A program made the position numbers and the translations under genes. The notes under the pieces are model-generated. The model did not search any database. It worked only from the letters and a program-made list of their open reading frames with translations, and was not told the origin of the DNA. This document shows, one piece after another, positions 291-56,257 of a stretch of DNA of 64,000 nt; position 1 is the stretch's first letter; the number at the start of each line of letters is the position of its first letter. Origin of the DNA: Chrysomallon squamiferum (lineage: Eukaryota > Animalia > Mollusca); assembly GCA_012295275.1 (NCBI GenBank), contig CM022678.1, forward strand, positions 558,001-622,000. The letters are read 5' to 3'.

Positions 291-552
291 ATGGACAACA
301 AAAACAAGAGTTCAGAAGTTTCGTCTAACAGCACAGCTGTTTTGTCCACAGACAAAATCACAGCTGTTTCTTCTTCAGACAAAATCACAGCTGTTTCTCC
401 TTCAGACATCACAGCTGTTTGTTCTGCAGAGACTGAGACAGCTGTTTCTCTCTTAGACAATACAACAAGTGTTTGTCTCTCTGGCATCACACCTCAGTTT
501 TCCTTTGAAGTCACAACAAAAATATATCAACTACCTGTGTCAAGCAGTTGTG
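291..552 (+). CDS. Copy A first coding exon: Ser/Thr-rich N-terminus with about five 9-aa repeats (TAVxSxDKI)
   Basis: Acceptor tattttacag ends at 280, ATG at 291, open frame to donor G|gtaata at 552/553 (phase 1). Homologous to 45025-45249, with the donor at the same position. Confidence 0.7.
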
Positions 553-809
553 GTAATATGCACATTATTTTAATATACTGTTTACTTTTTTGATGGTAAA
601 TTCTAAACTGACAAAAGTACTATTTACACTTGAAACAATACACTGTTTCGATATATTGTTTAGTTCCATCTTAGATATTAGCAAAATTGACACTTTTAAC
701 AAAAAACAGATTGTATTAATGCTCAATGTTGTCCTTACAGATACAAACATTTTTTTAAATTATGCTTGTGAGTTGTAAATTTAAGAAATGTATTTACTCC
801 TTTTCACAG

Positions 810-893
810 ATACTCAAATACAACTTGTAGAAGAGACAGTAAAGATATCTCACTGTGGAAATGTTGTAATAGGAGGCAATAGCACTTTAACTA
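810..893 (+). CDS. Copy A RHIM-like exon (DTQIQLVEETVKISHCGNVVIGGNSTLT)
   Basis: ttttcacag acceptor, A|gtaagt donor, 84 nt, phase 1-1, no stops. The paralogous exon 45828-45896 has the same boundaries and an in-frame length difference. Confidence 0.8.
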
Positions 894-2977
894 GTAAGTT
901 GAAAACTAACTTTTCTTTTCTCTAGATGTTTAACTGATAACAGAACACACATGTGACTTACTTTGGCTCTCGTCTCCAGTATCATGTACAGATCTTTAAA
1001 TTGACTAAGTTGTAACAGTTTCTAATACTGATGTCACCAAGTCATCACAAGAAACACATTTGTTAAAAATCCCTTAGAAATTAATAAGTAGCCTGCAACA
1101 CAATTCTCAACCAATAACTTGCTGAAACATTGAGGAATTTTACATCATAAAATTAAAAAAACATTCTTAAGAACTTGCTGGGAGTGTTGTCCTGTTTTGG
1201 TGCTTGTGATCTTACTGGATGTAACCTAAAACAGCAGTGAACTACACAAGTAAAACCTAATTAACAGACAAGTTGACATCACCAAGCTCACCCAGTAACT
1301 GTTTAGAACTCATTTTACTTTGTGCTGATCTTCTAGCAACATAGCTAAATATTACCAGATAAAACTACTTATTTTTCATTAAATAAAACTAACATTCTTG
1401 ACACCATTAATGCTGCCCAGAATACAAAGCCCACAATACAAAGCCCACTTGTTTAATGTGACATGTGTCAACCAATAACCAGTACACTTCCAAGGATTCT
1501 GTGATCTGCTATTCTTTGCGGTTAGACTTTTTTCACCTTTGGTTTTAGACACTGCTTCTAAAATCATCATTTTCATTATCTTATCACATAACTATGCATG
1601 ATTTAGTATTTGAATTAAAATCTACATATTGATGCAGTAATGGTCATAATTTTTTTTTTTTTTTTTTTTTTAAATCTTAACGTCCATTGTTCTACAAACG
1701 AGGTCATTTAATCATTGTCAGATCATAATGATTTTTCTCCTTTAACGATAGCTGGTGACATATGCAAAAACATCCACATATAAACACACACACACAAACA
1801 CAGACATTTTTAATACTGCATGCATTAAGTGTAGATAGGGACAGTTACAGAAATAATACTTGTAGGCTGTGAATGTAAATAATTTATTTTTCTATATTTG
1901 CAACAACACAAGCAGTGGTAGAACATATTTAAATATGAGCACACATAAACCAATCTACTAACACAAACATTGTATCAGGAGGTGCAGCTGTTGACACCAT
2001 AAAGTGAAAACCTGAATCATATTTAATAGATACAGAACTATATATCACATTAATCATTAGTATTTACCATCAAACACTATGACCAACAAATGCGAACAGA
2101 GACATACATACAGACACACAGACACACACACATACATACATATGTATGTCTACCCACTACCAAGGGTTTACAAATTGTGCAAACAACTGTTTTGTTCACA
2201 TGAGGGTTGCACAAAACTATCCTTATGTAACTCATTTTCCATTCACACAAAATTTGTGCTATGCTGAATGATAGTTTGTTCATGGTTGAAATTAAACCAC
2301 CATTCACCACATCAACAACAATGGCCTGAGTGACAGTAAATATTTCTCTCTGTAGAAATTTTATATTAGGAGACAAAACAACATAATGAAAATAATAGTA
2401 AACAAAGGATTGATGTACCAAGACAACAAACATTTGAAACTGGTAAGATAAAAAGTGAAAGTTTTCTTTTCTCTACCTGTTCAATAGGTAATATAATTCA
2501 TATCAGAGAAGTCTGTACTTTTCTATCACATCTGAAGAACATAGAAACATACACATGCATCAACAAACACAAACACAATATATACAAACACATGTACACA
2601 CATAAGTATTGTCACTCTTATCTAGATTTTCTTATCAAGATCCTGCAACATAAATTAAACAAGCCAATATATCATTATTATCACTTGCAAATAATGAAAT
2701 ACACTACAAAGAACTTAATAATAGTAATAATAATAAGAAGAACACTAATAATTGTAATAATATGAATAATAACAATAAGTAACATTAGTGATAAGAAACA
2801 ACAGCAGTAAATTTAATAAAAGTAGTAATAATTATAGTCAAATAGAAAGATATAATAATAATGTTATATGTTACCAGTGCTGTGAATAAAGTGTAGAGTA
2901 ATTGCACATACCACTTTAATCATTTCATTTACTCATCATCAATAACACAAACTTGTTTTATTTTTATATTGTTTCAG

Positions 2978-3010
2978 CAGAGAGTGATGGACAAGTATCC
3001 AAGATCAAAG
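2978..3010 (+). CDS. Copy A 33-nt linker micro-exon (TESDGQVSKIK)
   Basis: gtttcag acceptor (NAGNAG), AAG|gtatt donor, phase 1-1. Same length and boundaries as 48724-48756. Confidence 0.75.
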
Positions 3011-3249
3011 GTATTATTATTATTATTGTTATCTGAAATTGTCACACCTTATTATCTTCATTAAATTCTGATTAACTAAAATTATGACAACAAACTATTG
3101 TATTTGTTTTTAAACTCCATATCTAATGACCAGTTAAAAATTATATTATTTATATATGAATAATAAAATGTTCTCTAAACAATTAATTATACATGATTCT
3201 ATTTTTACTTTCATTTTTATTTTTTTATTTTTTTAATATTGTCCTACAG

Positions 3250-4409
3250 AGTCTACCAGGCTAGCGTTAAATTCAACTGACTGGAGTGTCTATGTTGAAA
3301 CAAGAGCAGAGAAAAGAGGTGTTGCACTTTTGAAGCAGAATGGTGTTGTCATTGTGATAGGATGTCCAGGTTCAGGAAAGACAACTCTAGCTTTAAGCAT
3401 GATGAAACAGATAGCAAAAGAAGAAAAAAGAGAACCTTACTTGCTGACTCATCACTCTGAATTCAATGACATCTTTCTATCTAGAAATAAGAAAAGTGTT
3501 GTTCTCATTGATGACATATTTGGCAAGACGAATCTTGTTTCAGATTTTACAGACTCATGGGAACTCAAATTTCCAGAGATATGGAGTGTTGTTCAGGATG
3601 GTTCTGTGAAATGTATTATTACTTTAAGAAAACAAATATATTCAGAAACTGAAATTAGTTTGAAGGAATTTGGTCTGTTTAATGAGAAACATGTTATTGA
3701 TCTGCAGAGTGATGACTGTTGTCTGAATTATAATGAAAAAGAAGAAATTCTCAACAAATATCTCAAACAAAAGGATGTTCCAATGGATAAAAGTGGCAAA
3801 CATAAGGTCATTCGCAATTCATGTACAGAGCTAGGATTTCCTCAGATGTGTGAGTTTTATGTTAATTCAAGTGATGCACAAAAAAGAGGAGTTGAGTTTT
3901 TTAAGAAACCTGTAGAATATCTCAAAAAAGAGCTGGAAAAATTGAAAAATGACAAATCACCGATCAACTACCTGGTTCTACTGCTGATTTTGTTCAAAGA
4001 AGGCAGTCTCAGCATTGATTCATTGGACCCTTTTGAAAATGACACTGACTGTGACATAATGAAATTAGTAAGAGAACTGGAACAATTCTGTAAGAATCTA
4101 GAAAACACTAATCTTAGAAATATCAAGGAAACAGCTGATTTTATGTGTGGTACCTATTTGAAGTGTTGTGACAATAAATACACATTTATTCACCAGTCAG
4201 TGTTTGACTCTGTGTTTCTGATGTTTTCATCAGAGTTTCCAGAGAAAGCAGCAGAATTGATAGAAGTGTGTCCTGTCTCCAGGTTGTCAGAATATGTTGT
4301 GACACCTGAAGTTTCTAACAAAAGTCACATTACATTGACTGTGATACTTGACTGCTTTGATTTTCTTCTTCAGGGGTTTATTGACCTGGTATCACAAAGT
4401 TTCAGATAA
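3250..4409 (+). CDS. Copy A STAND NTPase (nSTAND3-like) exon, ending at a premature TAA
   Basis: cctacag acceptor; Walker A GCPGSGKT, Walker B VLIDDIFG, IITLRK, GFP (GxP) and FIHQS motifs. TAA at 4407-4409 corresponds to GAA in copy B. Confidence 0.85.
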
Positions 4410-6188
4410 ATTATTTCAAATCCATCACTCACAGATGAAGAGTTTTTTAAATATCTCATAGAGGAACAAAACTTTTATGGTAAGTTGCCTGAAATACTGC
4501 AACAGAGACTATATAAACATATTATCTTCTGTTGCAAGTTTGTGTATAGTGAATGGACTAAAGACATTGTCAAAATGTTTCACATCAAATCTGCGTAACA
4601 TGAAACTTACATTTGTTATGAAAGAACTTTTGGATATTTCTTGTTTGTTTGGTGATGAAGATGTGAGAATATTGCTAAAATCAGGTGTTATTCCAACATT
4701 TGATACATTCAATGCAGCTGCTTGTTCAAAAACAGACAGTGCTACCATACTCAAAGAATTGTTTCAGTATAAAAAGGTGGTAAAATTGAATTTGTATTCC
4801 CACTTGTTACATATTTCATTTTGTTCAGGTAACATGAACATTGCCTGTCTGTTGGTTGAGATGATAAATAATGAGAAACACAACAGTGAAATCAAGGAAG
4901 AAGCTGTGAAACTGTTTTTGGTTAGATTCCATAGAAAAGTAACATTTAAATCAAGCTGCATGTGTTTGGAAAAGGCTCTTCAAGTTGCTGATGTAATCAA
5001 TTTTTTAAAGAAATTGGTTACCATTGATAAATAAAATTAAAGACATTGCTATCATTGCTGCTGGTCAGAGGTCTTCAAACATAAAAGAAATAGTAAAACT
5101 GAAACCTGATTGTATAAATGATGAGAACAGAGATAAAGTACTTTTAGAAGCAGCTATGTGGGGATGTATTGATACAGTGAATTTTCTCATTGAGCAGAGA
5201 TGTAATGATACAGATGAGAACAACTGGAAGAAAGGTGAAGTACTGAAAGTAGCAGTGATGTTTAACAGTGTAGATGTTGTTCAGTGTCTTCTTGATAAAG
5301 GAGCTGATCCTAATGTGAATGTAGATGTTAACGTGAAATTGATTGTATAGTTTGAAAAGGAAATACGATTAAAACTGTTGTCTGATGACATAACTAGTTT
5401 GAAACTGTCACCTTCAGACTCACCTCTCCACATTTCAGTTCAGCGTGGTGACTTAGATATGATAAAATCACTGATAGAGAGTAATGCTATTGTTAATGCA
5501 GTAAACAGTGAGGGAAAAACTCCACGTCATGAAGCTGCAAAAGCAACACACAGAAAGGAAGTAGCTTTGTTGTTACTGGAAAATGGTGCTGATATTAACA
5601 TAACAGATAAACAAAAGAATTCAGCATTGCACATAGCATCTCAAATTGATATAGATGTGGTGAAAGAAGTAAGAAAAAAAGGTTGTTGAAATAAATGTAG
5701 TTAATACTAAAGGTAAAGTTCATCTTTTTACAACTGTTCAGGATGAACAGAACAAAGTATTTGTTTATTTAGTGGAACATGGAGCTGACCCTAATTTAAC
5801 AGACAATGATAACAATTCTGTTTTACACCTAGCAATATAAGAAAGAAATTTAGAAGTGGTGACAGCATTGATTGATAAAGGCACAGATGTAAATATTAGA
5901 AACTGTGGATGTGTAACTCCTCTTTTTGAGGCTATGAAGTCTCAACAGAGAAATGTAGTTTTGCATGGAGCTAATCCTAATTTAACAGCTAGTGATAACA
6001 ATTCTCTTTTACACATAATAGCTGCATATGGAAATTTAGACATTTTGACAGCACTGATTAAAAAAGATATTGATGTAAATATTAAAAACAGTCGAGGTGA
6101 AACTCTTCTTGATAAAGCAAAGAGTTGTAACAAAACGGGAATTGTTTTATATTTACTGGAGAATGGTGCTAAAGATATTAACAGATAG
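4410..6188 (+). pseudogene. Disrupted helical/ankyrin C-terminal part of copy A
   Basis: ORF fragments 4477-5034, 5024-5350, 5378-5689 and 5856-6188 are collinear with copy B but separated by frameshifts, stops and deletions. Fewer than 10 ankyrin repeats remain. Confidence 0.9.
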
Positions 6189-6189
6189 A

Positions 6190-9100
6190 TACATTTTGTT
6201 ATAAATATGCACAGACTGTCACTTTTAAATGCAAAATTACCTAGTGAGAATATTTTAAAATTATGCTGAAATAATATTTTGGCATGAAATTGATGTTCAT
6301 AATAAAGAGAAAATTTCGTTTGAAGAAATCTAAATTTTGTTGTGTTATTTTTGTGGTACAAAGTTGATCTTCATTCTGAAACACATTGACTTCTGACATA
6401 GTTTTATTTTAAACTGCTTCAGTTGCACTTATTTTTAATGTAATGTTGTATCAGTGTATTTAAGTATATGTTAAGTAATATGTAAATAAATTTCTTTTCA
6501 GTAGAGGTATTTCACATTCCACTGCAAAATCTCACCGAATTAGTCCTACTTGCAAATTGATGGGCAAAAGTAACCATGCTGTAATGGGAGGCCATGACCA
6601 TTGTTCAGTTATTAACTGTTCCAATCACAGAAATCCAGGAAGTGCATATCAGAAATGTTTGTGTCTATTTGCTTCACGCAAAAATGAACTGTTTTTTAAT
6701 TTTGCCACGAACACAAAGGTCTGTTCGGCATATTTTTTAGGTGGGAAGCCAGTGAACAAGAAACGTGGACTATATACCAATCCTGAATATGGGATCAGAA
6801 ATTGTTACAACACCTAGAATAATGAATAACAAATGAAATTAATGAAATGGTTCAGATAACTACAGAGAACAATAGTTTCAATTATGTTGTTAATTATTCC
6901 GTCTACCACAACTAGTTGAGGTGTTTGTTGCCTCGAGTCACAAATACTTAGCAGGTGTTGTACAAGTACGTAGGTGTTTGTGTGAGTATGTGGGTAAAGG
7001 GACAGTCTTCAATATAACAGTTATATGTTACTCCAAAATAAGTGGTTTATTTATATATTGTTTAAGCTTAAAGTGTGTATGCTTGTGCATGTTTGTATTA
7101 ATTACACCTAACAGTAACTGTAATTAGACAAGTAACTGGTTTTAACCTGTAAGGAAATAACAGCTCACATTTCCTTCATAAACAAAAGATATAATTAAAC
7201 ATGTTACTGTATGTTTTGTTTGTTGAATGTAGTGTGTGGCTATGTTGTCACTGTTCAGTCAGAAATGTGTCTGCAACAAAACTCTGGCTGTAAATGGTAT
7301 CACTATAAAGACTTGCTGATGGGCACCTGCTACCCCTTGATCTGGACTTGAATTTGAAAGGTATTTTTTCATTTGTACTGTGTGTATGTACACAAGCATG
7401 CAGCCTTCCATTATTGTAGGTGGGGAATAACAGGCTGGATAACAGCATTTATTTATATTAACATTATGCTCACACACACACACACACACACACACATAAT
7501 ATGCATAGATGCACACATTCACCCTGAATTTGACACGGTTTAGCTATAAATTTCAGTGGACTGTTTTCTACGGCCATTATACCATCTAATTCAAAATATG
7601 TGCATGTTAGCTGTCAAAGATTAAAATCTCCTACAAAGCTACTCATGTCGCCCATAACAATCTGTCTGTCACACCCCTCAATCTGTAAATAGACTAGTTT
7701 CAGACTAGTTTGTCAAGGGATGTTATTGTTTGCATGCATGCTCAATAGGAATGTGAAATACCTCTAATGAAAAGTGTAATTATTGACTATTTTATATATA
7801 TATATATATAATATATCACTATAATCATTACCATACCATCTACTCTGCTATTTATATTCAAATATTCTATTGATGTATTTGTATCTATTCAGTTGTTTTA
7901 TTAATGAATGGAACAGTCTATTGCATTAATGTATGGTGTATTTTTCTTTATATATAAATATTATATTACTGTATTATATTGTCTATTGTATCTATTCAAA
8001 TATTGCATTAATGTGTGGTGTATTTTTTTATTTTATACAAATTACGATATTGTATAATCAGTCATATCCATTCAGATTTTGTACTACTGTTCTATAGTCT
8101 TTTGTTGTTTACTCTATTTGTATGTTACAAGAAATAATATGAAATTGTGTATCTTTATGAAATTTTCATTTGATTTTTACATTTGATTGAAATATCTTTG
8201 AGTGATTTATTGCACAATTCAGTTTAAAAAGATGTTAAGATATTTTTGTTTCCAATAATAATACAACAATACTAATACTGATGTTAATTTTGATCAGGTT
8301 AATCAGTCAGTGAAAAGTCAGGCAGTTTTTAAATCAGATTTGTTATTCATGATGACTTGATTATTACTTGTGTTTGACTGTTCATGTAGAAAATATCTGT
8401 AAAACAGAATGTTATAATTAAACTTGTGTTTTAATGTTCAGTGTAAAGTTTTTAATATATATTTTTTTATTTTATAAAAATTGTTCTGTATTAGTAAATG
8501 TTTTTCTATGTTTATATAAAAAGTAATGTTAATGTTAAATATAAAGATTTTACTCTTTTTTTTTTTTTGATTACAAAATAGATCATATCAAAACAATGTG
8601 TATACTAAGTAAATTTGTATTTTCATTTTAAACAAAGTTTATGTACATTCTTATTTGATACAATAATTCTGTAGTACTAAATATTTTCACTATGCTTAAA
8701 TTAATTAAACTAGCATTATAATGTTTATTATGAGATTTTTATATATTTTTTGTTTTTCATAATACTTGCTTTCTCTTGTTTTTAATAATAAATTTGTATT
8801 TCAAAGTAAAATGTATTTATATATATATGCAGTTACATGTATGTGTGTGTGATATATATATATAGTATTAGTTTCATTTGTTTTATTGTCATTTTTTATC
8901 GTATTAATAAGGAAATACATTCACATAACATTTACATGTCACTATTATCATTTGAAAATAGATAATAATAAAATTAAGCAAAAGTAAGTTTTCACTGTGA
9001 ACATATTTTATCTATATTTATATAAAACACTGCACAGTAATGTAGTTAATGTTTTCATACTTATTTCTCTATGACATATAGCAAAAATACCTAGTTTGTA

Positions 9101-42385: not shown

Positions 42386-45152
42386 GTAAGTAAATCTTTT
42401 ATTTGTTTAAATTACATTTACACACAAGCAGAAGCAGAAACAGACAGATAAACACACATACATGTACACATTTCAAATTCAAGTGTAATTAAAGTGATTG
42501 TCAGTAAAATAGTAAAATTTAGTATTATAAGCGTACAATGTACAGTACAAGACTGATAAAACTTCAGTTGCCAAAACTAGTCACAAGCTGGGTCCAGGTT
42601 TTATTGAAAAAATAAATCAATCTTGTTATAGTAATGTTACTTATAATATTTTCTTTAAAATTTCTAACCTTTAGCAGTTTTCAGACTTTACATAAAATAT
42701 CTTATAAGATTTGGAATGAAGAATTTAGCAGATTATTGAAAACTGAAGTCTGCAAAGTATCAAAGTATGTTTATACAAGCAGAGAAATAGAGAAAAATTA
42801 TCGTCTAATATTTATTTGACAGTCTTGTTAATCTGTTTTGAAATATTACCCACGTTCATACTGATTTATTCCAAAACTTAAAACTTTAAAAAGTTCTTAT
42901 GGTACTAAAGAAGTAAATATATTACTATATAATTAAATTTAATACAAAGAAATATGATAATCTACCAAAAAATGATAACACTGGAAACTGACAATATAAT
43001 ATCCACCTGGAATTTTTTTTAGCATTCTGGTACAATAAGATTTTTTTTTTTTTATCACAATATTGTCACATAATTTTATTCCTATTTAACACTAATAACA
43101 TATCATTCCATTGTATGGACCATAGACTTCATAAAATAGTTTAAGGAAATTGTTTTAGAGAGAAAATGTCACATTCAGTCTCTAGATTACATCTGTAGTT
43201 AAAGGGTTCAATGACGAATACACATTCAACTGCCTCCAGCATCCAACTCATCTCTCCAGTTAAATGTTGGATTGTCAGATGGTCAGCTACTGTCATTTCC
43301 TGTGATGAGCTGATTCCACTTTCATTGTGTATATAAAATGTTCACTTATGTGCTCAAGTGGATACAAAACTGGACTCCTGACTGGCCTATAGGAATGATC
43401 TGTTGAATGTATTCTTGTCTGTGATCTTTGTGTTTTGGATGTCCACCACTGTGCCAAGTTCACACTGAATGATTTAGCTGTGGTAGACAGTGGGGTTAAA
43501 AATCTATATGTAATATGTGAGTGTACTGCAGTTTCAGAAAATAACATGGAAACCTGATACACAGACCTGTCATAGTGAAATCAGGTGTAACTGTCATTCA
43601 GAAACATGGAACATCATTCTGTTGTCAACAATCACAAAGTTGTAATTACTTGTCACATCGTGTCACTCATTATCTCAGTGCTATCCTTTTCTCCACTTGT
43701 ATATTTGTGACATTTCCATTTAGTGAATTATATAATATTCACAACACCCTTATTTTGTTGTGACCATTTAAAGCAGAATGTCTCCAACATTTTATGTTAG
43801 TATATTATTATATTACAATAATATTTAATTAGCCATCGTGTATAATCATGTATGTAATTAATATTTTTACAGTTCTTAACTGTTTACCTAATTAATATCA
43901 GAAAATTAGGATAAATACACAACATCTAAATAGCAGGGTATATGCAGACAACCATGGGCTGTTTAGAAACAGTGTTATATAATTAGGGGAAGTTCCGTTA
44001 TTTTATAAAATAAGAAACACTGGGATTTACAAACTCAAAATTGGCATTTAGTTCCAAAGTAAATTCAGAAAGGCTATCTACAGAGCTGTTTACTGAATGC
44101 CTGCATAATGTCTATAAATATTCGACGAGCGTTTTAAACGAGATATTTTGATCGGTGCGCTTTCTTGAGACACATTGTCTGGGGGCCGTCTGCTCAAGAC
44201 AAAGGATCACTCAGACAATGCTAATTACGGTTTAAATGTTTTCTGTATGTAACATACATGCTGATTGATTGAAGATAGCTAAATATATTACTGTTGGATA
44301 TTTTATTGTGATATTATGCAGTACGCACTTGCGCTTAAAAACTAAGTAACAAACTAAGATAACTTATTTTAATAACTAAAAAATTAGTTAAAAAGTTAAA
44401 GTAACTAACTGGGCTACTTCCTTTTATATTGCATTGTTCGAATAGTACGATTAAATTATATGTAACCATTGATGCTTTATTTATGTGAAATATATATAAT
44501 AATTACCTATATTCAATTCTTGTTTGTGTTATTGTTCTCTAGTGGATACAGAATAGTCATTTAGTAGTTTAAGCTGTCTCAGATAATCAACACCTTGTCA
44601 CGTGACGCTATTATAGTCTGCTACCCTTTAGACGGGACGAGCCAAATTTTAGGTATCAGTACCACCCAGTCTAGTCATAGTGAAAATATCTTAGTATAAC
44701 TGTTGTGATAATTATTGACGTAATTTAGTACTGTAGTTTAAAAGAATCCTGTAAATGTTTTGTGATAATTACTGGAGTTAATTATTACAAAATATTTTAA
44801 ATGAACTGACTGTAATATGATGTAAGAGTAATTAATTGCAACAATATTAAATTTTGACATTAGCACTGATGTGATAATTATGTTTTCATGACTATTTTTA
44901 TATAACAGTCTAACACAAAATAATTATTTAGTAAATAAGGACGTGTATTAAAAAATTCTTATTTCATTATTTTAAAATACTTTCAGGAATATATTTAGTG
45001 AACAAAAGTTGAGAATGCAGTATGAGCTGTTTCGTCCACAGACAACATCACAACTGTTCGTTCCTTGGACACCATCACAGCTGTGTCATCCACATACAAT
45101 ATTACAACTGTTTCTTCTGTAGCGACTGACAAATGGTTCTTTCTTAGACAAA

Positions 45153-45249
45153 ATGTCAAGTGTTTGTCCCTCTGACATCACATCTCAGTCTTCATGTGAC
45201 ATTACAAATACAGGATGTCATGTACAACAACCTGAGTCAAGCAGTCACT
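45153..45249 (+). CDS. Copy B first coding segment (MSSVCPSDITSQSSCDITNTGCHVQQPESSSH) within an exon starting at 44987
   Basis: tttcag acceptor ends at 44986; aaaATG at 45153 is in the frame homologous to copy A; donor T|gtaaca at 45249/45250, phase 1. The donor is weak and the start is uncertain. Confidence 0.55.
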
Positions 45250-45827: not shown

Positions 45828-45896
45828 ATACTCGAATAAGGCAACATGAGCAACAGACAGCAAATGTTCAAGCGGGAGACAATAACACTATAATTA
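45828..45896 (+). CDS. Copy B RHIM-like exon (YTRIRQHEQQTANVQAGDNNTII)
   Basis: gtttcacag acceptor, A|gtaaga donor, 69 nt, phase 1-1; paralog of 810-893. Confidence 0.75.
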
Positions 45897-48723: not shown

Positions 48724-48756
48724 TAAATACTGATGGAAAAGCATCCAATACCAAAG
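48724..48756 (+). CDS. Copy B 33-nt linker micro-exon (INTDGKASNTK)
   Basis: atttcag acceptor, AAG|gtatt donor, phase 1-1; paralog of 2978-3010. Confidence 0.75.
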
Positions 48757-49031
48757 GTATTTTTTATTATTATTTCTTAAGTATTTTTATAGTTTTCTAA
48801 GCGATTCATAAATAGAAAGAAAATCATCTCACTACACTTATACCATCTAAAAGTGTGACATCTTATTATCATCATTAAATTCTGATTAACTAAAATTATG
48901 ACAACAAACTGTTTTATATCAAAAACTTCACATCTGATTATGAAATTTATATGATTTTTATTTACATAATCATCTATGCTTTAAACAGTTAATAATATAT
49001 ATATTTTTTGTTTCTTTATGTTGTGATACAG

Positions 49032-52000
49032 AGTGTACCAGGTCAATGTTAAACTCAGTTGACTGGAGTGTCTATGTTGAAACAAGAGCAGAGAAAAGAG
49101 GTGTTGCACTTTTGAAGAAGAACGGTGTTGTGATTGTAGTAGGATGTCCAGGTTCAGGAAAGACAACTCTAGCTTTGAGCATGATGAGACAGATAGAAAA
49201 AGAAGAAAAAAGAGAATCTTACTTGCTGACTCATCACTCTGAATTCAGTGACATCTCTCTATCTAGAAATAACAAATATGTTGTTCTCATTGATGATATA
49301 TTTGGTAAGACGAATCTTGTTTCACATTTTAGAGACTCATGGGAACAGAAATTTCCAGAGATATGGAGTCTTGTTCATGCTGGTTCTTTGAAATGTATTA
49401 TTTCTTTAAGAAAACAAATATTTTCAGAAAGTGAAATTAGTTTGAAGGAATTTGACCTGTTTAATGAGAAACATGTTCTTGATCTGCAGAATGATGACTG
49501 TTGTCTGCTTCATGATGAAAAGGATAAAATTCTAAACAAATATCTCAAACAAAAGGATGTTCCAATGGATGAAACTGATAAAACGACTGTCATTTACAGT
49601 TCATGTACAGAGTTAGGATTTCCTCAGGTGTGTGTGTATTATGTTAATTCAAGTGATGCACAAAAACGAGGAGTTGAGTTTTTCAAGAAACCTGTAGAAT
49701 ATCTCACACAGCAGCTGGAAAATTTGAAAAAAGACAAATCTTTACAGATCAATTACCTGGTTCTACTGCTGATCTTGTTCAAAGAAGGCAGTTTCAGCAT
49801 TGATTTACTGGATCCATCTCAAAATGACACCGACAGTGACATAATGAAATTAGTAAGACTGCTAGAGCGAGTCTGTCAGAGTGTAAGAAAGCCTGATCTT
49901 ACAGATATAAAGAAAACAGCTGATCTAATGTGTGGTACCTATTTGAAGCTGTGTCACAATAAATATATTTTTATTCACCAGTCAGTGTTTGACTGCTTGT
50001 TTCTGATATTTACATCAGAGTTTCCAGAGAAAGCAGCAGAATTGCTAGAAGTGTGTCCTGTCTCCATGTTGTTAGAATATGTTGTGACGCCTGGAGTATC
50101 TAACAAAAGTCACATTACATTGACTGTGAGACCTGGCTGCTTTGACTTTCTTGCTCGCAGATTTACTGACTTGCTGGCATCAGACAATGGCAGAGAAACT
50201 ATTTCACATCCATCACTGAAAGATGAAGAGTTTTTAAAATACCTGATAAAGGAAAAATACTTTTGTGGTAGATTGTCTGAAATGCTGCATCAGGAAATAT
50301 ATGAAATAGACTATGTCAAACATTTATGTGAAAATAATGAAACTAAATACAATTATATATCTTTTGTAAATCTTTACAGTGCTAATGAAATATTTTGCAC
50401 AATTTCATGTCTTCTTGACAAAGATTCCAAATTTGACTCTAGTTACACATTGTATTTGAAAGCTGATGAAAATTGTATAGAGTTATCTTCTGTTGCAAGT
50501 TTGTGTATAGTGAATGGACTAAGAACATTGTCGAAATGTTTCATATCAAATCTGTGTAACATGAAACTAACATTTGTGATGAAAGAACTTTTGGATATTT
50601 CTTGTTTGTTTGGTGATGAAGATGTTGTGAGAATGTTGCTAAAATCAGGTGTTATTTCAACATTTGATACATTCTGTGCAGCTGCTTGTTCAAAAACAGA
50701 CAGTGCTACCATACTCAAAGAACTGTTACAGTATAAGCAGGAGATGAAACTGAATATGTGTCCTCACTTGTTACATATTTCTATTTGTTCAGGTAATATA
50801 AAGATTGCCTGTCTGTTGGCTGATATGATAAATAATGAGAAACACAACAGTGAAGTCAAGGAAGAAGCTGTAAAACTGTTACTGGTTAGATTCCATAAAC
50901 AAGTAAAAGTTGTGTTACATGATAGGCATGTTGTGGAATGTGAGAGGTATTTTGGAAAGGCAAAGACTATTAAAGCTGATGATGTAAACAGTCTTTTTAA
51001 GAAACTGGTTACCATTGATATAATAAATAAAATTAAAGACATTGCTATCGTTGCTGCTTGTCAGAATAGTTCAAGTCTTATGAAAGAAATAGTAAAACTC
51101 AAACCTGATTGTATAAATGATGAGAACAGAGATAAAGTACTTTTAGCAGCAGCAATGTGGGGATCTACTGACACAGTGTATTTTCTCATTGAGCAGAGAT
51201 GTAATGATAAAGATGAGAACAACTGGAAGAAAAGTGAAGTACTGAAAGTGGCAGTGATGTTTAACAGTGTAGATGTTGTTCAGTGTCTTCTCGATAAAGG
51301 AGCTGATCCAAATGTGAATGTAGCTGTTAATATGAAATTGATTCGATTCTTTGTAAAAGAAATCATATCACAAGTGTTTTCTGGTGGCATATTAATAATA
51401 CAATCATTGGTTCGTCTAAAAACTATTGACAAAACTGAATTGCTTCAAGATGAACCTAGTTTGAAACTGGTGCCTTCAGACTCACCTCTTCACATTTCAG
51501 TTCTGCGTGGTGACCTAGATATGATAAAATCACTGATAAAGAGAAATGCTGATGTTAATGCAGTAAACAGTGAGGGAGAAACTCCACTTCATAAAGCTGT
51601 AAAAGCAGTGACACAGAGAAAGGAGGTAGCTTTGTTGTTACTTGAAAATGGTGCTGATATTAACATAACAGATAAAAGAAACAATTCAACATTGCACATA
51701 GCCTCTCAAATTGACATAGATGTAGTGAAAGAAGTAATAAAAAAATGTGATGAAATAAATGTAATTAACACTCAAGGAGAAACTCCTCTACTTTTGTCCT
51801 TATACAATAACAGACCTGAAACAGGCAAATATTTACTAAAAAATGGAGCTGATCCTAATATAACAGACAATGATAAGAATTCTGCGATACACATAGCAGC
51901 TCAACGTGGAAATCTCGAAATTGTGACAGCACTGATTGAAAAAGGGGTTGATGTAGACGTTAAAAACAGTAAAGATGAAACACCACTTACTATAGCTATG

Positions 52001-55000
52001 AAATCTAAAACGCAGAAAGTAGTTTTGTATTTACTGGAACATGGAGCTGATCCTAATTTAACTAACTGTTTTAACAATTCTACTTTACACTTAGCAGCTG
52101 AACATGGAAATATGGAAATTGTGACATCACAGATTGAAAAAGGTGTTGATGTAGACGTTAAAAGCAGTAACGGTGAAACTCCTCTTTTTACAGCTGTTAA
52201 GTATAAACAGAACAAAGTAGCGTTTTATCTGCTGGAACGTGGAGCTCATCCTAATGTAATAGACAATGATTACAATTCGCTTTTACACATAGCAGTCAAA
52301 AATGCAAATATAGAAATTGTGAAAGCACTGATTGAAAAAGGTGCTGATGTAAATATTAAAAACTGTCGAGGTGAAATTCCTCTTTTTACCGCTTTTAAGT
52401 ATAAACATAACAAAGTAGTTGCGTATTTACGCGAAGACGAACCTTTGAACCAAGTAGTTTCTTATTTATTAGACCACGGAGCTGATCCTAATTTAACAGA
52501 CAATGATAACAACTCTGTTTTACACCTAGCAGCTGAGCATGGAAATATAAAAATTGTGACAGCACTGATTGAAAAAGGTTTAGATGTAAATATTCAAAAC
52601 TGTAGGGGTGAAACTCCTCTTTTTGCAGCTGTTAGCTATCAACAGAGACAAGTAGTTTTGTATTTAATGGAACATGAAGCTGATCCTACTTTAAGAAACA
52701 ATGATAACAATTCTGTTTTACACCTAGCAGCAAAATATCGAAATATTGAAATTGTGACAGCACTGATTCAAAAAGGTGTTGCTGTAAATATTAGAAATAA
52801 TAATGGTGAGACCCCTCTTTCTACAGCAATTATGCATCACCACAAAAAAGTATTTTATTATTTACTAGAACATGGAGCTGATCTTAATTTAAAAGATACT
52901 AATAACAATTCTATTTTACACGTAGCAGCTAAATATGGAAATATAGAACTAGTGACAGCACTGATTGAAAAAGGGTTTTTTGTAAATATTAAAAATAGCC
53001 GAGGTGAAACTCCCCTTTTTAAAATTGTTGAGAATCAAGGATTTTTCTCATTACAAGGACACGAACGTTTGAACAATCTATTTTTTTATCTCCTCAGAAA
53101 TGGAGCCGATCCCAATTTAAGAGACAATGATAACAATTCTGTTTTACACCTAGCAGCTAAACAAGGATTTATTGAAATTGTGACAGCACTGATTGAAAAA
53201 GGTTTTGGGGTAAATATTAAAAACAGGCGAGGTCAAACTCCTCTTTTTACAGCTTTTACTTATAATGAACTTGAACCATCTCTGAACAATGAAAAATGTA
53301 AAGTAGTTTTGTACTTATTGGAACATGGAGCTGATCCTAATTTATCAGACAATGATAACAATTCTGTTTTACACCTAGCAGCTAAACATGGAAACATAGA
53401 AATTGTGAAAGCACTGATTGAAAAAGGTGCAGACGTAAATATTAGAAACAACACAGGTGTAACACCTGTTTTTATAGCTGTTGGGGCTAAACAGACAAAA
53501 ATAGTTTTGTATTTACTGGAACACGGAGCTCATCCTATTTTAACAGACCATCATAACAATTCTGTTTTACACGTAGCAGCTCTAAATGGAAATGTAGAAC
53601 TTGTGACCGCACTGATTGAAAAAGGTGCTGATGTAAATCTTAGAAACTGCCAAGGCTACACTCCTCTTTTTTCAGCTCTTTGTAGCTATGTATTTGATCC
53701 TTCTCTGAAGAATGAAATATGTAAAGTTTTGTATTTACTGGAACATGAAGCTCATCCTAATTTAACAGACAATGATACCAATTCTGTTTTACACATAGCG
53801 TATTCACTTACAAATATAGAAACTGTAACAGCACTGATTGAAAAAGCTGTTGATGTAAATATTAGAAACAGCCAAGGCGACAGTCGTCTTTTTACAGCTC
53901 TTTCTAACTGTCAACTTGACCCATCTCTGAAGAATAAAATATGTAAAGTAGTTTTGTACTTATTGGAACATGGAGCTGATCCAAATTCAATAGACAATGA
54001 TAACAATTCTGTTTTACACATAGCGTCTTCACTTACAAATATAGAAACTGTAACAGCACTGATTGAAAAAGGTGTCGATGTAAATATTAGAAACAGCCGA
54101 GGTCAAACTCCTCTTTTTACAGCTCTTTCTAACTATGAATGTCATTCATCTCTGAAGAATGAAATATGTAAAGTAGTTTTGTACTTATTGGAACATGGAG
54201 CTGATCCAAATTTAATAGACAATGATAACAATTCTGTTTTACACATAGCGTCTTCACTTACAAATATAGAAACTGTAACAGCACTGATTGAAAAAGGTGT
54301 CGATGTAAATATTAGAAACAGCCGAGGTCAAACTCCTCTTTTTACAGCTCTTTCTAACTATGAACGTCATTCATCTCTGAAGAATGAAATATGTAAAGTA
54401 GTTTTGTACTTATTGGAACATGGAGCTGATCCAAATTTAAAACTCACTGACAACAATTCTGTTTTACACCTAGCAGCTGCAGTTGCAGATATAGATATTG
54501 TGAGAGCACTGATTGAAAAAGGTGCTGATGTAAATATTAGAAACGGCGAAGGTGCAACTGCTTTATCTATTGCTTTTAGTTACCGTAGAGATGATCCATC
54601 TATGAAGAATGAAATATGTAAAGTAGTTTCGTATTTACTGGAACATGGAGCTGATCCTAATTTAAAACTCGCTGACAACAATTTTGTTTTACACCTAGCA
54701 GCTGCACTTGGAAATATAGAAATTGTGAGAGCACTGATTGAAAAAGGTGCTGATGTAAATATTAGAAACGGCGAAGGTGCAACTGCTTTATTTACAGCTT
54801 TTGCTTACGGTGAATATGAACCATCTATGAAGAATGAAATATGTAAAGTAGTTTCGTATTTACTGGAACATGGAGCTGATCCTAATTTAACATACAATGA
54901 CGACAACTCTGTTTTACACCTAGCAGCTGCACGTGCAAATATAGAAATTGTGAGAGCACTGATTGAAAAAGGTGCTGATGTAAATATTAGAAACAGCCAA

Positions 55001-56257
55001 GGTCAAACTCCTCTTTTTACAGCTTTTGGTTACAGACAAAATGATCCATCTCTGAAGAATGAAATAGGTAAAGTAGTTTCGTATTTACTGGAACACGGAG
55101 CTGATGCTAATTTAACAGACACTGACAACTATTCTGTTTTACACCTAGCAGCTGAACTTGGAAATGAAGAAATTGTGAGAGCACTGATTGAAAAAGGTTT
55201 TCAAATAAATATTAAAAACAGCCAAGATGAGACTCCTCTTTTGATAGCACTTAAGTATCAACAGAACAAAGTAGTTTTGTATTTAATGGAACACGGAGGT
55301 GATCCTAATTTAACAGACACTGACAACTATTCTGTTTTACAGCTGGCAGCTGCATTTGGAAATATAGAACTTGTGACAACACTGATTGAAAAAGGTGCTG
55401 ATATAAATAGTAAAGACAGCCAAGGGCTCACTCCTCTTTTTATTTCTCTTTTTTGCAGTATACACGACTCATCTCTGAATGTTGAAAAATATAAAGTATT
55501 TTTCTATTTGCTGGAACATGGAGCTAATCCTAATATAACAGACAATGATAACGATTCTGTTTTACACTTAACAGCTCATCAAGGATATATAGAAATTGTG
55601 ACAGCACTGATTGAAAAAGGTGCTGATGTAAATATTAGAAACAGAAGAGGTGAAACTCCTCTTTTTGCAGCTCTTGCTTACAATGAATGTGGTCCACCTC
55701 TGAAGGATGAAAACTGTAATGTAGCTTTGTATTTATTGGAACATGGAGCTGATCCTACATTAACGGACAATGATAACAATTCTGTTTTACACCTAGCAGC
55801 TAAACAAGGATTTATTGAAATTGTCACAGCACTGATTCAAATAGGTGTTGATGTAAACATTAAAAACAGTCGAGGTGAAACGCCTCTTCTTATTGCTGTT
55901 AAACATGCACATTGGATACAGGTTTTGTATTTTCTACGGCGAGAACCTTCGAAGAAAGTAAATTTGTATAAACAACGACATCAAGCTTTGAAGAAAGTAG
56001 CTTTGTATTTACTGGAACATGGAGCTGATCCTTATTTAACAGACAATGAAAATGATTTTGTTTTACAGCAAGCAATGAAACATAGAAATGTTGATGTTAT
56101 ATTAGCAGTGACTGAAAAAGGTAGAGATGTAAATACTAAACATAGTCGAGATGAAACTCCTCTTGATAAAGCAAAGAGTTGTAACAGAAGGGGAATTATT
56201 TTAAGTTTACTGAGAATGGTGCTAACGATATTAACAGATAGATACATTTTGTTATAA
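49032..56257 (+). CDS. Copy B giant terminal exon: nSTAND3-like STAND NTPase, helical region and about 44 ankyrin repeats (NLR-like receptor)
   Basis: 2403-aa ORF from 49046; gatacag acceptor at 49031 is in frame with the upstream exons; Walker A GCPGSGKT, Walker B VLIDDIFG, GFP and FIHQS motifs; alternating SVLHLAA / TPLFTA ankyrin repeats. Confidence 0.93.
51480..56240 (+). repeat. Coding ankyrin tandem array of about 22 two-repeat units (mostly 198 or 225 nt)
   Basis: About 44 repeats counted by eye. Units 53991-54215 and 54216-54440 are identical except at one base. Confidence 0.92.

Follow-up and report, generated by a model that had tools for sequence, protein, structure and literature searches.

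Several described systems resemble the locus analysed here. Fungal amyloid-motif NLRs (NWD2/HET-S) and the RHIM-NACHT-repeat proteins that exist in Branchiostoma likewise carry a short N-terminal motif, a central STAND NTPase and C-terminal repeats, as set out in the sections of PMC4262963 on these proteins. Plant TN and CN proteins (CHS1, and TN2 with SOC3) combine an effector with a nucleotide-binding (NB) module without repeats and are encoded beside a full-length gene; the CHS1/TN2-SOC3 cluster, and plant sensor/executor pairs such as RRS1/RPS4, are head-to-head according to PMC8813719. Bacterial Avs5, in the portion of bioRxiv 2025.07.08.663546 concerned with it, carries an nSTAND3 domain. 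Here we describe two nSTAND3 genes, copy A and copy B, in a 64,000-nt window of the mollusc Chrysomallon squamiferum (contig CM022678.1, positions 558,001 to 622,000), of which copy A, truncated by a premature stop, has about an even chance in our judgement of being a young transcribed pseudogene or chimera. The fungal and Branchiostoma proteins use NACHT or NB-ARC, whereas copy A has nSTAND3 and the amyloid function of its peptide is putative. The plant cases have been tested and are head-to-head, whereas copy A is a tandem recent duplicate still carrying a decaying tail. Avs5 and human SAMD9 are STAND proteins like copies A and B but, unlike them, have enzymatic effectors and TPR-type repeats.

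Copy A comprises four coding exons on the forward strand (291-552, 810-893, 2978-3010 and 3250-4409) that join to 1539 nt and 512 amino acids with 0 internal stops, and GT-AG borders are found at all three introns. The gene model, intact Walker motifs and splice sites thus stand as given in a first-pass annotation of this DNA. Exon 1, preceded by an acceptor before position 281, encodes a Ser/Thr-rich low-complexity N-terminus of 87 residues in which no Pfam family comes near its cut-off; exon 2 encodes a putative RHIM-like peptide with the tetrad VVIG; and exon 3, at 33 nt, equals exon 3 of copy B in length. The open part of exon 4 encodes an nSTAND3 NTPase (PF20720, a profile match of 102.1 bits against a cut-off of 27.2), with a nucleotide-binding domain (NBD) at approximately 3291-3767 followed by a helical domain (HD1), a winged-helix domain (WHD) and the cut stub of a second, HD2-like helical domain, the last label following from domain order. 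The near-invariant residues of the family alignment, G37/G40/G42/K43, D87, R126, F196-P197 and H314, are all kept in copy A, and we take them to be, respectively, Walker A (3360-3383), Walker B (3510-3515), the sensor-1 Arg, the GxP (GFP) motif and the WHD His (codon at 4191-4193). A structure model of copy A has a mean pLDDT of 91 over the NBD-HD1-WHD core and 60-83 over the stub, although as the model is driven by the alignment this is weak evidence. In Foldseek searches of the PDB its best fold match is the NRC1 NB-ARC (8bv0, E 1e-6, TM 0.48-0.53), and the top matches of the copy B model are Avs5 and SAMD9 (E 6e-6 and 1e-5), with low TM-scores and 10-12% identity.

Copy B, on the same strand, has predicted exons 1-3 at 45153-45249, 45828-45896 and 48724-48756, which encode a shorter N-terminus with the tetrad VQAG, and an exon 4 at 49032..56257 (open frame 48944-56257) that encodes nSTAND3 (PF20720, 89.1 bits, cut-off 27.2) and then a long ankyrin array. 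The two copies have 77% protein identity; the C-terminal repeat sensor present in copy B is out of frame in copy A.

What puts it out of frame begins with a TAA at 4407..4409, where copy B has GAA. Upstream of this stop the exon 4 sequences of the two copies differ by 3-nt indels solely. Past it lies a dead tail (4410..6188, forward strand) corresponding to the remaining helical domain plus a short array of ankyrin repeats, broken by frameshifts at about 4520 (a 173-nt deletion), 5027 (5 nt) and 5683 (+1), further stops at 5348 and 5838, and in-frame deletions besides, so that the three frameshifts and two stops bear out the five or more lesions previously counted there. The stop does not, as had been proposed, cleanly remove the ankyrin sensor. 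It corresponds to residue 388 of copy B and falls inside a predicted helix (386-390) of a conserved helical domain, in a model of copy B residues 1-600 (pLDDT 87.5) where the winged helix is followed by this helical domain (approximately 330-420), a low-confidence insert (432-480) and paired helices. Copy A therefore does not encode a complete NBD-HD1-WHD-HD2 module, as the helical domain runs to about 420 in the model. Of 54 columns with a conservation of at least 60%, the truncation takes 3; the family-conserved H392, D397 and F400 (76%, 66% and 81% of 98-99 rows) are lost past the TAA. Upstream, the 28 columns conserved at 75% or more are kept with the sole exception of Arg376, present in 82% of 114 rows and replaced in copy A by Gly (4374-4376), a change that belongs to a cluster of copy A-derived changes in the last 45 codons ahead of the TAA (4272..4406). 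On this model the predicted product is an NBD-HD1-WHD protein with about 60% of an HD2-like domain, and not a receptor neatly minus its sensor. Escape from nonsense-mediated decay had also been invoked, and the stop does lie in the last exon, but this is non-discriminating because that exon holds 1160 of the 1539 coding nt and the entire lost tail, so that most lesions of any dead copy would fall there. The 173-nt deletion (4515-4521, against 50303-50481 in copy B) coincides with the insert at 432-480 of copy B, a region of variable length among relatives, and may have started in-frame.

Nine sequencing runs of three studies contain parts of the window; six were compared, all as contigs, and the figures given here (run names X1 to X9) come from the best rows of each table. 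A 436-nt contig of X5 (4212-4647) crosses both the TAA and the 173-nt deletion with 0 differences, as do two contigs of X8 (4224-4500 and 4472-4647) taken together, and the later lesions are spanned with 0-1 differences by contigs of X1, X3, X7 and X8. Tail contigs include 5808-6312 of X7 with 0 differences and 4870-5062 of X7 and X8 with 1 difference, and the tail is present in contigs of RNA libraries. The contigs that match the lesions come from two studies, one of which may be the source of the assembly. The splice joints 552->810 and 893->2978, both GT-AG, are seen in X5, X7 and X8 in contigs that begin at 281; among the rows compared there is no exon 3-exon 4 joint, and no contig joins exons 1-3 to the TAA. 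Although X5 is listed as 'DNA?', we read it as RNA because of these joints and of zero depth in nine intron bins between 1257 and 2669; contigs of X7 and X8 also include parts of introns. Contigs that carry exon 1 in spliced form depart from the window by 4-8 letters (in X7 by 8 of 271, and none of the 8 listed letters checked makes a stop), and may represent an allele or a close sister of copy A. Copy A or a near-identical allele is transcribed and spliced, and its lesions are not assembly errors, so that neither of these two threats foreseen by the first-pass annotation, absent expression and misassembly, has materialised. In X9, from the third study, depth is 7.8 in the bin 4397-4553 against 24-36 for most copy A-like contigs, and X7 has none there; such holes prove nothing, but copy A may vary by presence and absence.

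Selection was assessed by pairwise dN/dS (omega) between copies A and B, with changes polarised on proteins. The maximum likelihood omega is 0.78 before the TAA (384 codons; p 0.26 against omega=1 and 0.034 against omega=0.5) and, for the 429 codons from there to 5720, 0.66, and NG86 estimates are 0.76 and 0.71 with dS of 0.16 and 0.15, beside a non-coding divergence of 0.18. The lower value predicted for the retained half is thus absent. We dropped dN/dS as a deciding test, as seven 225-nt repeat units within the open frame of copy B have mutual omegas of 0.82-1.29. When departures are polarised on the seven closest relatives, conserved core sites (residues 1-340) are changed at 5 of 136 in copy A and 9 of 136 in copy B, those in residues 341-387 at 5 of 18 and 0 of 18, and those past the TAA at 8 of 93 and 6 of 93, respectively; for copy A the stub differs from the core (p 0.002) but the core does not differ significantly from the tail (p 0.15). 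If only three Gigantopelta proteins serve as the reference, each copy has 21 departures in total. The stub has an omega of 1.6, not significantly above 1. Of 14 letters where copy A differs from most contigs, a small and hand-picked sample, 11 are non-synonymous, which is the neutral share. Divergence between the copies is patchy, with a dS of 0.11 in the NBD and 0.31 in the WHD, and a divergence scan gives p of 0.01, 0.037 and 0.01 over three window sizes.

On this evidence we consider copy A a little more likely to be a young pseudogene or a chimera than a decoy or adaptor kept by selection, a weighting that reflects judgement and is not a computed posterior; a dedicated pair of copies A and B we hold to be unlikely. 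Of the marks of a transcribed pseudogene, copy A has the disabling lesions and the transcription; on a third, the lack of purifying selection on the remaining frame, omega is a weak guide and the counts at conserved sites lean towards retention. We count in favour of the pseudogene reading that omega is no lower before than after the TAA, and that the cut lies inside a conserved domain with Arg376 lost and decay starting about 45 residues ahead of the stop. A plausible course of events starts from a family of NLR-like receptors subject to birth-and-death turnover, in which the tail of copy A was released from constraint recently, at about 0.025 substitutions per site. This equals roughly one third of the half of the A/B distance that falls to copy A, and it is an approximate value resting on low counts: a neutral half-branch of 0.08 would lead one to expect 6.5 later stops, and there are two. 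For fungal NLRs, frequent pseudogenes, raised dN/dS and repeat exchange are described in the relevant part of PMC13449251. Copy A would probably be a recombinant that joins the 5' half of a living copy to the 3' half of a dead one. Unequal crossover or conversion among many similar copies, or simple chance given numerous dead ones, may have left its 5' half clean, and a living promoter would keep it transcribed, while its predicted 512-aa product would be dispensable. The patchy divergence, the decay boundary upstream of the TAA and a haplotype without 1171-2822 fit recombination. Any protein made would presumably be held largely in the closed, ADP-bound state by its retained WHD His, but with an exposed, half-built HD2. 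This His holds STAND proteins closed, and in SAMD9 its loss, or loss of the WHD-HD2 contact, is activating, according to the part of PMC13600222 that deals with these contacts. A number of observations nevertheless weigh against a dead copy A. Its splicing and transcription continue; no donor or breakpoint of a chimera was found; and pairwise omega is a weak test that cannot show death, because the living repeats of copy B give values of about 1. Differences between the copies fall less often on columns conserved in the family (7 of 77 against 77 of 297, p 0.001, pooled over both branches). Death of the whole gene at 0.025 substitutions per site predicts 8-14 core changes, with a probability of 0.20 to 0.005 for five or fewer. 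In the lesion-position test that the first-pass annotation had suggested, the probability that the first of six lesions lies beyond 1536 of 3315 nt is 0.024 under uniform placement, all six being in the last 54%. Simple uniform decay is disfavoured because of the few core changes and this placement, and the readings that remain are that selection acts on the core, or that recombination or conversion supplied an unbroken 5' half, with chance among numerous dead copies playing a part; given 20-50 dead copies, a p of 0.024 would arise somewhere with a probability of 0.38-0.70.

Selection on the core would mean that the short product is a NOD protein without a sensor that serves the whole family as decoy or adaptor, in the manner of plant TN and CN proteins, and we give this a substantial chance, if a lesser one than decay. 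Such a protein might co-assemble with full-length members through its NBD-HD1-WHD surfaces or its RHIM-like peptide, the HD2 stub having been released or remodelled after the stop arose. The lesion placement, a core better kept than that of copy B, the 27 of 28 conserved columns retained ahead of the TAA, transcription with use of the splice sites, the stub omega and, less strongly, the confident fold of the alignment-driven model all argue for it, as does the plant precedent in the relevant section of PMC8813719. These are offset by an omega that is not lower before the TAA, the lack of a significant difference between core and tail, a cut within a domain and a RHIM that is putative, and also by the likely cost of an active form, as breaking WHD-HD2 contacts activates SAMD9 harmfully (in the same part of PMC13600222). 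The earlier claim that the product is retained by selection thus keeps lesion placement and the well-kept core on its side, both of which recombination explains as well, and finds no support in omega or in the position of the cut. In its boldest form, which we regard as rather improbable, copy A would be a selected sensor-less RHIM-like/NOD protein in the course of being born by truncation, tuning a large mollusc family of nSTAND3-ankyrin receptors whose signalling goes through a short amyloid motif, and so an animal counterpart of plant TN and CN proteins on the NTPase clade of Avs5. That copies A and B form a dedicated helper/sensor pair, in which B senses by its ankyrins and A provides a complete RHIM, is a good deal less likely still. 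Both copies do lie in one window, and the RHIM-like exon of copy B is 15 nt shorter, as the first-pass annotation had noted, with its N-terminus cut back where that of copy A is longer. However, the copies are in tandem on one strand, separated by about 45 kb in which repeats abound, and do not stand head to head as do the plant pairs described in that section of PMC8813719; they are recent duplicates; dozens of other paralogues could supply either part; and the central Gln of the tetrad is kept by copy B, notwithstanding its shorter exon, and not by copy A. Nothing singles out copy B among the paralogues as the partner of copy A, and the proposal that the two act together finds no footing here. 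We give almost no credence to copy A being a full-length receptor whose lesions come from misassembly or are removed by splicing. Window letters 399, 499, 517 and 3475, all four non-synonymous, are absent from the covering contigs among the rows compared, and are private variants or assembly errors; but the contigs across the TAA, the 173-nt deletion and the later lesions match the window almost letter for letter. A dying copy A would be nothing unusual in the turnover of immune genes, and the interest of the locus would then lie in a large, expressed and unstudied mollusc nSTAND3-ankyrin NLR-like gene set with a separate, duplicated RHIM-like exon; a retained copy A would be a datable animal case in which a receptor gave rise to a decoy or adaptor.

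The peptide of exon 2, VKISHCGNVVIGGN, resembles RHIMs, and the label is plausible if unproven. The canonical RHIM tetrad is (V/I)-Q-(V/I/L/C)-G and the cryptic core VxxG, as defined in part of PMC13506858. None of the tetrads seen here (VVIG in copy A, VQAG in copy B and FILG in an intron remnant) has the canonical form, and copies A and B both have the cryptic VxxG, a pattern too short to mean much. The peptide has no match to a Pfam family at E up to 10, to the PDB other than phosphoglycerate kinase noise, or in an Atlas search beyond unnamed clusters (best score 0.77), although profile searches for RHIMs lack power, according to section 4 of PMC4262963. Among 73 relatives with an N-terminus of at least 60 amino acids, one has a RHIM-like pattern, against 0.34 in shuffles. 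The RHIM assigned to copy A by the first-pass annotation is not confirmed by Pfam, the PDB or the Atlas. Intron 2 of copy A contains a degenerate duplicate of exon 2 with stops (2260..2495, forward strand; its alignment scores 100.5, where 300 shuffles reach 75 at most), for which no counterpart was found in copy B. We do not count it as a concealed lesion ahead of the stop, since the observed splice 893->2978 skips it. One additional base follows 2374 in contigs of X8 and X3, and some paralogues may have a two-motif N-terminus. A joint 1170->2823 in X3 and X5 represents a copy A-like allele or copy without 1171-2822, which is most of intron 2 including the duplicate.

Matches to the family number 923 representatives at E up to 0.001. 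Summed depth over exon 4 in DNA-type runs, which is no copy number, is 4,592-7,261 in X3 against 25-56 for long copy A-type contigs, 248-620 in X1 against 4-11, and 1,176-2,791 in X9 against mostly 24-36; its plain reading is that there are dozens of close paralogues. No third family copy lies within the window. The closest named relatives are Gigantopelta aegis LOC121387848, LOC121387078 and LOC121387578, with 45-46% identity to copy A over 96-99% of exon 4, and Haliotis LOC124125871, which has a caspase-family domain and 31% identity; judged by these, a gastropod source of the window is likely. As in the copy A family, a PF20720 NTPase precedes helical domains and ankyrin repeats in these proteins; unlike copy A they are full-length and have different N-termini, and all are uncharacterised. 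A search for shorter relatives found none among 436 candidates. A separate search at nearly the same length gave two Haliotis rubra proteins, one of them marked partial. Seven of 144 relatives end by residue 430 of copy B, but as the completeness of these proteins is uncertain they give no evidence of a natural short class. Related loci in metagenome contigs gave 132 pattern matches and 0 confirmed cases. Other marine-invertebrate expansions with STAND and ankyrin parts are reported in part of PMC8195603. With most subscription journals not covered, none of the listed papers on nSTAND3 concerns molluscs by title or start of abstract, and those found that combine it with ankyrin are fungal; nothing was found on an ankyrin expansion in Gigantopelta, nor on a mollusc nSTAND3-ankyrin family.

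Copy B has lesions of its own near its ends: at the 5' end (44989-45249) stops lie upstream and exon 1 has lost 2 nt, and at the 3' end (about 56210) there is a 1-nt deletion relative to copy A some 12 codons ahead of the stop seen in copy A; together with its 9 of 136 departures at conserved core sites these suggest that copy B may itself be relaxing. Its repeat units at 53738-55312, seven of 225 nt (75 aa) and 66-99% identical, point to recent internal duplication, with possibly diversifying selection in the sensor.

Elsewhere in the window, the segment 6273-7826 exceeds the corresponding 3' flank of copy B by about 1.3 kb and is likely a repeat insertion. Summed DNA depth is high over 6553-7000, and a Cys-rich frame at 6479-6817, which has no Pfam match, is reminiscent of a THAP domain. 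Between the two copies (10400-42000) there are many dispersed repeats of 65-90% identity that have no match to the family proteins, and some of them look like retroelement remnants.

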